Origin: Eledone cirrhosa
Taxonomy: Eukaryota
DNA length: 64,000 nucleotides
Reading direction: 5' to 3'
NCBI GenBank assembly: GCA_964016885.1
Contig: OZ024743.1
Span: 231,446,001 to 231,510,000, forward strand
Notes under the pieces: model-generated
Databases searched by the model: none
The model's input: the letters and a program-made list of their open reading frames with translations, nothing else
Told to the model about the DNA's origin: nothing
Part shown: piece after piece, positions 8,603 to 54,277 of the stretch
Position numbering within the stretch: the first letter of the stretch is position 1
Layout: each line of letters begins with the position of its first letter
Program-made: the position numbers and the translations under genes

Positions 8603-11600
8603 ATATATATATATATATATATATATATATATATATATATATATATATATATATATCTGTTTGTCCCGAATCTTCCTTTATCGATTTTAAATCGTATGGT
8701 TGATTGTAGACTTGTTCTATATGTGACGGTATTTTAACGATAGTTATAGCTCTGATTCATCTGAATTATTGAGCCCTCTGCCGCTCATGTCGAATCTCGT
8801 TTATCGTGAACTCGTGCGCCGATTTTTCGATACTCGATCTTTCTAATATATATATATATATATATATTTATATATATATATATATATATATATATATATA
8901 TATATATATGTATATATATGTATATATATATATATGTATATATATATATATGCGTGTGTGTGTATGTGTGTATGTGTGTGTGTGTGTGTGTGTATATATA
9001 TATATATGTGTGTGTGTAGGCAGGTGTGTATATATATGTGTGTATATGTGTATATATATATATATATATATATATATATATATGTATATATATATATGTA
9101 TATGTATATGTATATATATATATGTATATATATATATATATATATATGTAAATATATATATATATATGTGTGCGTGAGAGAGAGTGTGTATATATATTTG
9201 TGTGTGTACGTGTGTATGCGTGTATATATATGTATATGTATATATGTGTGTATATATGCGTTATATGTCTGTATATATGTGTATATTTATGTATAGGACT
9301 GTGTATGTATGTGTATATTTGTGTATATATATGGATATATATATATATATATATATATTTTTATACATATGCATGTGTATGTGTGGGTGTGTGTGTATAT
9401 ATATGTGTATATATGTGTGTGTGTGTATATATATGTATATATATATATATATATATATATATATGTGTGCGTATGTGTATATATATATATGTATATGTGT
9501 GTATATATATATATATGTGTATATATATATATATATATGTGTATGTATGTGTATATGTATGTTTGTATATATGTTTGTATGTATATATATATATGTGTAT
9601 ATATGTGTGTATATGTATGTAGGTGTGTGTATATTTATATATGTATATATTTATGTATATATATATATATATATGTGTATATATATATATATATATATGT
9701 GTGTGTGTGTATATGTGTGTATGTATTTGTGTATATATGTATGTATGTGTATATGTGTGTGTGTATATGTGTAGGTATATATGTGTGTGTGTGTATATAT
9801 GTATGTATATGTATGTGTGTGTATATATATGTATATATATATATATATATATATGAATATTTATATATATATTTATATATATATATATATATATATATGT
9901 ATATATGTGTGTGTGTATGTATATATATATGAATATATGTATGAATGGTGTATCCTCTCTCTCTCTCTCTATATATATATATATATATATATATATATAT
10001 GTATGTATGGTGCTTTTTCCTTATATATGTGTATATGTGTGTGTGTGTATGTGTGTGTATGTATATATATATATATGTATGTATGTATGTGTGCGTGCGT
10101 GTGTATGTATATGCATATATTTGTTTATGTATATATATATATATATATATATATATTTATATATATATGTGTTTGTGTGTCTGTGTGTGTATATGTATAT
10201 ATGTGTGTGTATGTGTATTATATGTATATATATATGTATGTATATATGTATATATATATGTGTATATGTGTATATATATATATATATATATATATATATA
10301 TATATATATATATATATATATATATATATATATATATATATATATATATGTCTGTATATGTATATATATATAAATATATATTTGTATATATCTGTATATA
10401 TATATATATATATATGTATGTCTATGTGTATTTATGTGTATATGTATACATATGTATATTTGTGTTTGTATGTAGGTGTGTGAGTGTATTTATATGTGTA
10501 TATATGTGTGTGTGTGTGTGTATATATATATGTATGTGTGTGTGTAAATATATATATGTGTGTGTATATGTATATATATGTATATATATATATATATATA
10601 TATATATATATATATATATATATATATATATATATATATAGATATATATGTATATATATGTATATATATATATGTATATATATATATATATATGCGTGTG
10701 TGTGTATGTGTGTATGTGTGTGTGTGTGTGTATATATATATATATATATATATATGTGTGTGTGTAGGCAGGTGTGTATATATATGTGTGTATATGTGTA
10801 TATATATATATATATATGTATATATATATATGTATATGTATATGTATATATATATATGTATATATATATATATATATATATATGTAAATATATATATATA
10901 TATATGTGCGTGAGAGAGAGTGTGTATATATATTTGTGTGTGTATGTGTGTATGCGTGTATATATATGTATATGTATATATGTGTGTATATATGCGTTAT
11001 ATGTCTGTATATATGTGTATATTTATGTATAGGACTGTGTATGTATGTGTATATTTGTATATATATGGATATATATATATATATATATATATTTTTATAC
11101 ATATGCATGTGTATGTGTGGGTGTGTGTGTATATATATGTGTATATATGTGTGTGTGTGTATATGTATGTATATATATATATATATATATATATATATAT
11201 ATATATATATGTGTGCGTATGTGTATATATATATATGTATATGTGTGTATATATATATATATGTGTATATATATATATATATGTGTATGTATGTGTATAT
11301 GTATGTTTGTATATATGTTTGTATGTATATATATATATGTGTATATATGTGTGTATATGTATGTAGGTGTGTGTATATTTATATATGTATATATTTATGT
11401 ATATATATATATATATATATATATATGTGTGTATATATATATATATATGTGTGTGTGTATATGTGTGTATGTATTTGTGTATATATGTATGTATGTGTAT
11501 ATGTGTGTGTGTATATGTGTATGTATATATGTGTGTGTGTATGTATATATATATGAATATATGTATGAATGGTGTATCTCTCTCTCTCCCTCTCTCTCTC

Positions 11601-12736
11601 TCTATATATATATATATATATATATATATATATATATGTATGTATGTGTGTGTGTGTATGTATATGTATATATTTGTTTATGTATATATATATATATATG
11701 TGTGTGTGTCTGTGTGTGTATATGTATATATGTGTGTGTATGTGTATTATATGTATATATATATATATGTATATATGTATATATATATGTATGTATGTGT
11801 ATATATATATATATATATATATATATATATATATATATATATATATACATACATATATATATGTCTGTATATGTATATATATATAAGTATATATATGTAT
11901 ATATCTGTATATATATATATATATATATGTATGTCTATGTTTATTTATGTGTATATGTATACACATGTATATTTGTGTTTGTATGTAGGTGTGTGAGTGT
12001 ATTTATATGTGTATATATGTGTGTGTGTGTGTGTGTGTATATATATGTATGTGTGTGTATATATATATATATATGTGTGTATATGTATATATATGTATAT
12101 ATATATATATATATATATATATATATATATATATATATATATATATATATATATATATGTATGTATTTGTATGTATATAAATATATGTATATATATGTGT
12201 GTGTGTTTTTATGTGTGTATTTGCGTATGTGTATGTGTGTTTATGGTTGCGCGTGAGTGTGTGAGTGAGTATGTTTTTCTGCGAATGTGTCTGTTGATTT
12301 TTGGCATATAGTTGATTAGTTTAAGAGAAGTTCGATGATAATTTTAAGATATGCACTCAGTATTTTGAATCTGTCTACAGAATTCTCTAAACCTTTGTCA
12401 CTTAGTAGAACCTTAATGATTTTAGCTTTTAAAGATTCTCCCTTTTCTTTTATTCTATCTACCATGACTGACCCCCCCACTGATCTTATAGACATCTGTT
12501 AACTTAAGAGAAACTTAATGACAAGGAATGGTATGCCATCCGGAACCTGTTTATAGAATTATGTCTGCCTTTGTTACTCTAAAAACATAAATAAATAAAA
12601 ATAAACTATAGCTTTGTAGAATTAGCTTTTAATGAATTCCCTTTTCTATCAACCAATGACCTACACCCATCCCACTCCCCACCCTCTCCTACCACTTGTA
12701 GAGACCTATAAATACCATTTTTATTTTTTGATACCC

Positions 12737-12787
12737 AGATTCCTGATGATTTCTAAAGAATGAAACAGTTCTAGTCCTGTAGAATCT
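12737..12787 (+). ncRNA. Type I hammerhead ribozyme (family A)
   Basis: agattc CTGATGA tttctaaagaat GAAA cag ttctagtc ctg TA gaatct. Confidence 0.88.
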
Positions 12788-12933
12788 GATCTATATTAAA
12801 ACTTTTATACTCTGCTATGTATTGAGTACCTTACTTACTGTGGTTACCTCCGATTCAACCCGGTATAACGTATATATATATATATATATATATATGAAAC
12901 ATAAGAATCAAAGAACTGTTCAAAACATTTTTG

Positions 12934-12980
12934 TGCTTACAACTGTTTCCTCCAAACCGAGGTTTGGATTCTTCGGAGCA
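12934..12980 (-). ncRNA. Hammerhead ribozyme, CCGAAGA core (family B inverted arm)
   Basis: Reverse complement of 17648-17694. Confidence 0.75.
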
Positions 12981-52041: not shown

Positions 52042-52876
52042 CCCTAGACACGTTAAAATTAATATTCCCTACAACTTAGCCAAGAGAATCTGTACTATAG
52101 TCTCCAATAAAAACATCTGCTACTTACGGCTACAAGAACTAAAGGACACACTCATAGGCAGGGACTACCCTGCATCACTAATTGACAATGGAATCCAACG
52201 TGCCCTAAAACTCAGTACCCAGGAACTTAGACACCCTAAAGTAAATCAACCAAAACTAAAAGTTATTCCATACATCTCCACACACAACCCCCTCAACAAT
52301 GAGGCCTTTGACACCATCCTCCAGAACATCCCTGTATTGAAAAAGGACCATAGAATGAACCAAATTCTACGAACACACGATATCATAAAGAGCAAAAGAC
52401 AATCCAAGTCAATGAAAAACATCTTAACACATGCCAAAGTACTGCCAACCGCAACAACGAAACCCACAGTAAAAAAATGCGATTGACCCAACTGTGGCAT
52501 TTGCATCAACCTAATAGAGGGTTCGGAATTCTATTTCAAAGATGGACAACGTTTTATAGTAAAACACAATTTCACATGTGCATCGGAAAATTTAATATAT
52601 GTATTAACTTGTTCAGGTTGTCGAGAACAATACATAGGCCAGACCAAAAACAGCCTCCGCCAACGCATGACTGTCCATAGATCCCAAATTAAAATACGGG
52701 AATACAGGAAAATACCACTGAGTGAACACATTGATACCTGTGCCGCCCAAAATCATCCCAACTTCAGAATCTTTCCCCTCTACAAATTTAAAGATAATGC
52801 CACCCACACCCAGCGCATCAGCAAGGAATCTTACTTCATTAACAAATACGGACCCCGTCTAAACACTTCTCCCTAA
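52042..52876 (+). pseudogene. Neptune-type PLE thumb/GIY-YIG fragment, one in-frame TGA
   Basis: PRHVKINIPYNLAKRICTIVS, KKCD*PNCGIC, LIYVLTCSGCREQYIGQT; close to 38680-39480. Confidence 0.88.
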
Positions 52877-53830
52877 GACGAACCCACAACATACACACGT
52901 CAACATACATACCTACATCAGCACACATCTCTACCCACATATAAACACAATGACACACGTAAACACACATGCTCTATGGTGCAATACAAAAAAATATATG
53001 TGCATATATATGTATGTATATATGTATATATATATATATATGTAGTGAAAATATATATGTGTGTGTGTGTGTGTATATATATATAGTGAATATCATTTCA
53101 CACCTTTTATTGTTAAGATTGTTGATGTTCTATTAAGAGAACCGATTTTACTGAAAAAATCGAATAATGTACACCATTTTACCAGGGGGAAAAAAATACT
53201 GGTCCACCCACACACACACACACATATATATACACAAACACATACACACGCGTACATCAACATACAAAGAGAATTATACACACACACACACACACACACA
53301 CACACGCACTTCTCCGTATAAGACAAAAGCTGAAAAATATCTTTTGACCTTCGAATGACTCTGCTGTGTGTGTGTACGCACACACACACACACACACACT
53401 TATCTTAATAGCCATTTGACACACATCGCTGCTGGCTATTGTCGCAGCATCGAACACCTTACTACTACTACTACACACACACACACACACACACACACAC
53501 ACACATATTTGTTGTGAAAGAGTCATTTCTCAATCTTGGCGCAAAACCAATTTTTTATCCACATGACCTCTACCGACCAATCAAAATTGTTTTGACCAAT
53601 AATTTTTGCTGGAGCCATTTTTCTAACATTTTAACATAAAAACAGTCTTGGCGCAAAATCAACTGTTTACATTCACATGACCTCTACCGACCAATCAAAA
53701 TTGTTTTGACCACAAGCATTTTTGCAACACAAAAATAACGCTGGAGCCATTTTTTTAACATAAAAACAGGTAGAATTCCCAAAACTAATCAGATCAGAGC
53801 AAACAGCACGGACACTCTATCTCAAAATTA

Positions 53831-53867
53831 TTTTTGAAAAGCATTTAGAAATGCGCAACCGGTAAAA
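53831..53867 (+). ncRNA. Hammerhead-like motif with U3-A8 core and GCAA instead of GAAA (inverted copy ~51381-51417)
   Basis: ttt TTGAAAA gcattt ag aaatgc GCAA ccgg TA aaa. Confidence 0.6.
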
Positions 53868-54012
53868 ACTTAAAAACTTAAAACCACAACTGAATACTAA
53901 CCCATACAATCACTAATACTCTTTTATTCCTAATTAAACCATTTTTCAACTGTGAACAATTTGTCAGCATTTTCTATTCCGTTTACCAATATATATATAT
54001 ATATACATATAT

Positions 54013-54277
54013 AGGAAAAAGTATAACCCCGACGGCAGAGCTTAAGCCGTTTCGACGGCTATTTCTGTACTAAATTAGAATTTTTAGCCTGGTGAATAAA
54101 TAGCGGGCTATTTATTCACCAGACTAAAAATTCTAATTTAGTCCAGAAATAGCCGTCGAAACGTCTTGAGCTCTGCCGTCGGGGTCATACTTTTTCCTAT
54201 TTCCCACTCTACTACCCTAAGTATTGAGTACTCTGGTGCGTTATGGTCCATTTGGTTCCTTACCACAATTTCTTTGT
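54013..54277 (+). mobile_element. Family D short fold-back PLE insertion plus tail
   Basis: ~90-bp arms 54013-54104 / 54107-54198; tail matches 49551-49620. Confidence 0.75.

Follow-up and report, generated by a model that had tools for sequence, protein, structure and literature searches.

The window analysed here is a 64,000-nt stretch of the Eledone cirrhosa genome (assembly GCA_964016885.1, contig OZ024743.1, positions 231,446,001 to 231,510,000), rich in (TA)n tracts and in fragments of Penelope-like elements (PLEs). Several of its PLE families carry a small hairpin in which an RCUC/GAGY stem, bulged (UH) on the 3' side, is followed by a Y-R pair and by a free stem and loop (consensus, RCUC-Y(stem)R-UH-GAGY-(ACU)). 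The hairpin is usually paired, with the two copies 59–170 nt apart between the hammerhead motif and the open reading frame (ORF) of PLEs from the Hydra clade. Family labels A–D and P were matched to those of a first-pass annotation made by a model from the letters of the window, and families Q, R and Q26 were assigned in the present analysis (Table 1). All seven exact hairpins reported by that annotation were found where it had placed them. It had also called the families unrelated, which does not hold: the ORF proteins of families A, B and C are 40–47% identical and a Hydra-type ORF follows in family D as well, while the DNA of the pseudo-long terminal repeats (pLTRs) of families A–D shares little except the hairpin motif.

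Family B contains both hairpins within the window, the second of which was newly identified. Alignments of family B copies stopped at 13527/13528 (n = 9) or at 13690–13698 (n = 21) in 30 of 32 cases, and eight further copies stopped at 13527/13528 in a separate comparison. The first stop is 3–4 nt 5' of hairpin 1 and the second is mostly 5 nt 5' of hairpin 2. Though the ORF is broken in the window copy, intact 819-aa ORFs occur in dozens of near-identical copies genome-wide (e.g., locus L313), including tandem and head-to-head full-length copies, and about 80 of the best 150 genomic matches to family B retain an 832-codon open frame, indicating that the family is young. The repaired protein that the first-pass annotation had wanted for biochemical work is unnecessary given these natural ORFs.

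The Hydra clade is defined, in the available text of Craig et al. 2021 (PMC8557442), by an RWK-type N-terminal motif, DKT in place of DKG, a CxCX5C linker, and a GIY-YIG domain with CxxC and CxH. The intact B protein has RWR at residue 38 and DKT at 123, with no DKG, followed by CNCRANRTC at 678 (the CxCX5C linker), YVG at 712, CNLC at 776 and CQH at 804, and the family has the (TA)n insertion and the tandem and inverted pLTR structure of the clade, such that both protein motifs and (TA)n targeting match. A Pfam search of the intact protein recognised neither the protein nor its C-terminal GIY-YIG domain, and the viral contigs searched contained no relative. Candidate hammerhead cores were located by pattern in families A and C and as a variant in family B (CCGAAGA at 13443–13449 where CUGANGA is usual), with no Rfam match at the gathering score.

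Table 1. Hairpins and associated features of the PLE families in the window
Feature	Position	Strand	Basis or remark
Family B hairpin 1 (5' pLTR)	13532..13565	+	Sequence match
Family B hairpin 2, 37 nt 5' of the ATG at 13738	13701..13717	+	Sequence match; missing from the first-pass annotation
Family B hairpin 1 in the 3' pLTR	17741..17774	+	Tail extends to ~17904, then (TA)n
Family B tail, 167 nt, the interval separating the two stop sites	13529..13695	+	Copy ends
Family B inverted short arm	12896..13287	-	Ends 3 nt before the hairpin-1 position
Family B putative hammerhead-like fold, core CCGAAGA...GAAA	13437..13512	+	By eye; no Rfam match
Hydra-clade PLE ORF of family B (reverse transcriptase, C-terminal GIY-YIG)	13738..16196	+	Broken in the window copy
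Family A hairpin 1	12809..12827	+	Hammerhead core at 12743
Family A short arm	2199..2746	-	Ends ~5 nt before hairpin 1
Family C hairpin 1	31051..31070	+	Hammerhead core at 30947
Family D hairpin 1	49558..49581	+	Sequence match
Family D hairpin 1	54206..54229	+	33 sibling arms stop at 54199/54200
Decayed family D-type hairpin	54449..54472	+	Closing arm mutated; missed by the covariance model
Family P hairpin 1, in a 617-bp non-coding tandem unit	8749..8774	+	Window copy stops at ~8850, just before the hairpin 2 position of tandem copies
Family Q hairpin	42767..42802	-	Absent from the first-pass annotation; mutated twin at about 43247-43282(+)
Family R hairpin, compensatory GUUC/GAAC basal stem	35356..35379	+	Further copies at 35885-35908(+) and 34628-34651(-)
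Family Q26 hairpin, loop ~65 nt	26167..26245	-	Intact in siblings; closing arm of the window copy mutated

Overall, copies of families B, C, D and P end mostly 3–7 nt 5' of either hairpin 1 (short ends) or hairpin 2 (long ends), and the stretch between the two hairpins therefore constitutes the tail. Family C has 26 short stops at 31041–31051, and of its 20 read-through loci, 17 had the hairpin 2 predicted behind the long end. For family D, 29 loci contained 33 short and 32 long stops, and hairpin 2 was seen in read-through copies. Among the family P copies, 10 of 11 stops are located just 5' of a hairpin 2 that carries a 90-nt insert and is itself the minimum-energy fold. Arrays of family P (loci L191–L210; window 8660–8850) are very young, with many units 100% identical and both hairpins present. 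Short arms in the window end 0–9 nt 5' of the hairpin, and mostly 3–7 nt across genomic copies. The first-pass annotation had put the hairpin start about 4–10 nt past the end of the shorter arm in families A, B, C, D and P; the window contains no inverted arm of family P. The last 2–6 shared bases at copy ends are usually TA-alternating.

Enrichment was explored using a descriptor that requires the RCTC/GAGY stem, a TT bulge on the 3' side, and two further pairs. In the window, the descriptor had 10 matches compared to a mean of 0.8 (maximum, 3) in 50 block shuffles. For a genome sample of 80 evenly spaced 10-kb stretches (800 kb) from the four largest chromosomes of the 3.0-Gb genome, it had 68 matches (8–21 in 10 shuffles), rising to 122 (16–36 in shuffles) with TT, TC and TA bulges combined, and chance accounts for about one-fifth of descriptor matches. 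After TT, the most frequent bulge dinucleotides were TA (28) and TC (26), with the remaining 13 giving 1–16, and the bulge is therefore described as U followed by U, C or A; the TT bulge of the first-pass annotation is the most frequent form but not the only one. Extrapolating from the sample would place, very roughly, 350,000 hairpins across the 3-Gb genome.

Pairing was assessed on sites picked with no demand for it: recurrent ends flanked by (TA)n formed 307 clusters, and the 21 that had a sequence anchor yielded 19 distinct hairpins. The outer pair was Watson-Crick in 15 of the 19 (9.4 on average in permutations), and inner pairs one to three were so in 16, 14 and 13 (8.7, 8.6 and 4.9 in permutations), bearing out the claim that the basal pair covaries and that the upper stem still pairs. 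In an 18-member alignment, six of eight pairs changed on both sides, a count biased towards structure as the members were chosen as hairpins. On the sense strand, G-U exceeded A-C (9 to 2 in the 19-hairpin set; 13 to 5 in the metagenome set described below), a modest sign that it is the sense single strand that folds. The proposed check by covariance model recovered 13 window matches at E<0.5, all within these hairpin families, and missed both of the degenerate copies that had been suggested: one at 54449–54472, and one at 26205–26245(-) that had been mis-delimited, with siblings closing the hairpin ~70 nt beyond it and the copy in the window mutated there. Rfam covariance models had no window match at the gathering score, and in a weaker search all 150 listed of 211 weak matches were to microRNA families. 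A selenocysteine insertion sequence (SECIS), an element carried by Naiad PLEs, was rejected as an identity for the hairpin, with no Rfam match and a host element that is not a Naiad.

Hairpins and copy ends also coincide in the genome sample. Within these 800 kb, 80 hairpin sites had another copy, and a sibling stopping at (TA)n within -12 to +8 nt was found for 61 of them; the corresponding ratios were 3 of 78 for opposite-strand sites, 86 of 626 for random sites and 3 of 52 for other bulges. Counted per family cluster, the ratio was 16 of 27, with one of the 16 being a microsatellite artefact. Control descriptors gave few stops, except for RCAC/GTGY (10/28) and RTTC/GAAY (8/28), and the latter set includes a real hairpin variant. 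Discovery of ends blind to the motif placed the hairpin directly after recurrent stops in about 15 clusters. Of the 126 hairpin sites in the sample, a hammerhead core occurred upstream of 20 and downstream of 3.

Based on sequences from outside this genome, the hairpin is a conserved feature of the Hydra clade and is distributed clade-wide. Using 78 metagenome loci retrieved by protein alignment alone, of which 64 had at least 100 nt of flank, the hairpin was found in 48 of the 64, located 45–65 nt 3' of the hammerhead core and just 5' of the start codon. The descriptor was strongly oriented upstream of the ORFs (15.8 kb; 54 sense, 0 antisense) and 3' of the hammerhead cores (13.9 kb, overlapping the ORF-upstream regions; 42 sense, 0 antisense), compared to 14 sense and 6 antisense inside the ORFs (149 kb). 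Two hairpins, 59–83 nt apart, were present in 26 of 46 junctions, some from near-duplicate loci. Among 68 distinct metagenome hairpins, the first inner pair was Watson-Crick in 63 (permutation mean, 36.5) and the 3' flank began with ACT in 60. Eleven of 26 metagenome alignment ends occurred 0–14 nt 5' of a hairpin, nine of them at 0–4 nt, and many of the remainder resemble points of cross-family divergence. By eye, the six Hydra consensi of Craig et al. (File S7) include one coral and two sea-cucumber families with the exact motif, one of the sea-cucumber consensi having two hairpins 5' of the ORF; the motif is degenerate in two others and absent from the octopus consensus, which has no pLTR. 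Three related Chlamys consensi from the alga Chara start with the motif, one exactly and two with a mismatch.

Where two arms are joined head-to-head, they differ in their ends. Such insertions comprised 101 long+short, 3 long+long and 0 short+short pairs. For loci that had not been chosen by the tail query of the family concerned, 38 of 39 pairs were long+short, with about half expected (p about 7e-11), implying that the two ends of one insertion are coordinated. A tail at just one end of an insertion has already been noted qualitatively in the available text of PMC8557442. In the opposite direction, 31 abutting pairs from families A, B and C were compared for 5' reach, with family D excluded as the query itself is palindromic; the short arm extended >15 nt further in 12, the long arm in 7, and the two were similar in 12. 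Simple fold-back copying does not give pairs in which the short arm extends further 5', although asymmetric deletion at a later stage could.

Position, covariation, strand and cross-species conservation strongly support the hairpin as a cis-element tied to arm ends. The first-pass annotation had suggested an element setting where the second arm begins, and the tie to arm ends stands, while the duplicated hairpin marks both ends and not the second arm alone. A template-boundary element in the telomerase sense, also put forward, is inconsistent with a hairpin that lies 3' of the start. The hairpin is probably an RNA landmark bound by the reverse transcriptase (RT) just 3' of each internal start, and the two ends of a (TA)n break would both serve in twin priming; binding, priming and the use of a dimer are what we infer. 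A read-through or tandem transcript would span the pLTR-ORF junction, with protein docking on each of the two hairpins. The GIY-YIG domain would cut (TA)n on both strands, each DNA 3' end would pair with the UA patch beside one hairpin, and one RNA would yield two complementary DNAs (cDNAs), from site 2 with the tail and from site 1 without it, joined head-to-head. As the signal is 3' of the start and remains uncopied, further rounds could be templated only by copies that are tandem or carry a tail, a need that would account for pLTRs, for tails and for the small non-coding parasites exemplified by family P. A dimer prediction for residues 1–430, in which no alignment was used, scored 0.00 and weighs neither way. 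In L1 twin priming, both break ends prime on one RNA and an inversion results, whereas the priming sites proposed here would both be fixed and both arms copy the same region.

Several observations weigh against this interpretation. Copies and families are related, and the counts are not independent. In family A, the full hairpin predicted behind the long stop was found in 0 of 20 loci (142 read-through matches by pattern), and the long end (loci L241–L260) is followed by only a 4-bp mini-stem with a 5-nt loop. With the anchor that was applied, 17 of 46 metagenome junctions had one hairpin and 3 had none. One seven-member cluster had no stop at all, and a Neptune-type family near 37300–42100 has two sharp stops without the motif (41625, 8 copies; 41563, 7 copies). 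Across 11 copies, the predicted folds have weak stability (z, -2.1 to +0.3), and several copies, including those of family D, favour a different fold in isolation. Finally, the 12 of 31 abutting pairs with similar 5' ends are as fold-back predicts, and arms that look independent could also result from asymmetric deletion at the centre of a palindrome.

These last points bear on an unlikely alternative, in which the motif acts in DNA: a single long-end cDNA folds back and the hairpin marks either a second-strand stop or endonuclease resolution, leaving a short arm without a tail. This would account for long+short pairing without twin priming and for the arms with similar 5' ends, and there is precedent in the available text of PMC11167929, which cites the Drosophila virilis tail as necessary for endonuclease recognition, and of PMC8557442, which suggests tail formation by endonuclease-mediated resolution. 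It leaves unexplained why the same hairpin, never present in the cDNA, follows the long end, and it is at odds with the short arms holding sequence missing from the adjoining long arm in 12 of 31 pairs and with G-U pairs favouring the sense strand. Less plausible, and in our view improbable, is that the hairpin directs formation of RNA 3' ends, by cleavage or termination a few bases upstream, from which the RT then starts. The fixed short spacing 3' of each copy end would suit such a role, yet independently cut RNAs should yield long+long and short+short pairs where 101 of 104 are long+short, and the lizard element PAc initiates internally on uncut RNA (available text of PMC11167929). A role for the hairpin in a different step (control of translation, packaging or assistance to the hammerhead), with the neighbouring UA patch alone setting the ends, is very improbable. 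UA patches are ubiquitous in these AT-rich elements, yet stops cluster at hairpins, and family P retains the motif despite being non-coding and yielding no hammerhead core; such a role would fit the location of the hairpin 45–65 nt after the hammerhead core and just 5' of the start codon, and the coincidence of copy ends with TA microhomology. Chance matches in an AT-rich repeat landscape, conceivable for a short motif with the one-fifth background above, are refuted by enrichment, strand bias (54 to 0), covariation and position.

The landmark interpretation can be compared with known systems, the nearest of which is PAc, a lizard Poseidon element. According to the available text of Frangieh et al. 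2024 (PMC11167929), PAc is reverse transcribed from two internal sites with a tail between them, inserts at an AT-rich target, needs RNA 3' of the starts (to +172), and has both strands cut and extended. The families described here likewise have two discrete 3' ends with a tail between. PAc starts in a stem-loop that is AC-rich and lies inside the ORF, whereas the present ends occur at UA-alternating patches upstream of the ORF. The PAc study, the single in vitro study located, names that stem-loop and infers a downstream binding motif that it leaves undefined, with no conserved downstream motif named in the available text, whereas the hairpin here is defined, duplicated and clade-wide, with tails of 59–170 nt. 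By eye only, the printed PAc template has a possible 3'-bulged hairpin of different sequence at +121 to +147, 3 nt after the +111–118 start zone and inside the +172 limit. By analogy, the hairpin fits PAc-type internal initiation and is a candidate for the motif left undefined.

In long interspersed nuclear elements (LINEs), the 3' hairpin sits upstream of the RT start and is copied. For the eel LINE UnaL2 and its short interspersed nuclear element (SINE), a small bulged 3' stem-loop is needed for mobilisation (available text of PMC1636434), and a small bulged stem-loop common to an element and its non-autonomous partners is also what is seen here. By this analogy, the hairpin probably functions in a similar way to the stem-loops by which stringent LINEs are recognised. 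The UnaL2-type stem-loop is in the 3' end of every copy, whereas the present hairpin is beyond the end that it marks, is uncopied from that site and occurs twice, and it is therefore not a member of the LINE class. Family P also resembles non-LTR retrozymes (LTR, long terminal repeat; PMC7229834; bioRxiv 10.64898/2026.07.22.740005) in being a non-coding tandem unit with a cis-signal in common with PLEs; those papers give no recognition signal in their available text. Retrozymes have a type I hammerhead in each tandem unit, and the 617-bp unit of family P has no hammerhead core by pattern and no Rfam match at E<=5. The Hydra-clade description reports hammerheads and a 30–40 bp tail, and the word "hairpin" does not occur in its main text (PMC8557442, available text). 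A literature search found no description of the hairpin, its duplication or a counted long+short rule, with most subscription papers outside the search; the figures of PMC11167929 or the supplements of the bioRxiv paper may already draw a start-site hairpin.

More speculatively, and perhaps somewhat short of an even chance, the duplicated hairpin could be the recognition code of PLE retrotransposition, with two RTs on one RNA priming both break ends, which would account for the tails, for the inverted arms and for tandem pLTRs being needed. Such a code would be ancient, as it heads the Chara Chlamys consensi, and would have diverged analogues in other PLE clades. If this were true, the hairpin would provide a telomerase-related RT with a start tag both minimal and portable. 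PLEs are the closest retroelement relatives of telomerase, and the motif bears on how they choose template and start site and on why they leave tails and head-to-head arms. Given a ~20-nt motif with covariation, a predicted 3–7 nt offset and a young intact host family, a handful of RNA mutants would suffice for a test. For curation, the motif makes it possible to locate true ends and to link non-coding repeats with their Hydra-clade partners.

Other repeats in the window were noted. A second class of 3'-bulged hairpin (GTTT-C..G, a 2-nt bulge, AAAC), whose inner pairs differ between two subfamilies, starts ~6 nt after the recurrent stops of a palindromic non-coding family (47290–47420(-), 47372–47879; L101 +9750, L056 -2541). 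Neptune-type PLE families (37301–42101(-), 51266–53982, 31214–33855) likewise end at discrete points and have tails (62 nt in the first family), and in two of the families a ACTCGTGT..ACACCTC segment, which may be a signal particular to that clade, occurs ~9 nt beyond the short stop. A decayed Gypsy-type LTR retrotransposon fragment (23291–26090) has 543-bp direct repeats that are 96% identical, along with pol fragments. Based on translations inspected by eye, non-LTR retrotransposon-like fragments with endonuclease and RT pieces are located at 43814–47171 and 60763–61377.

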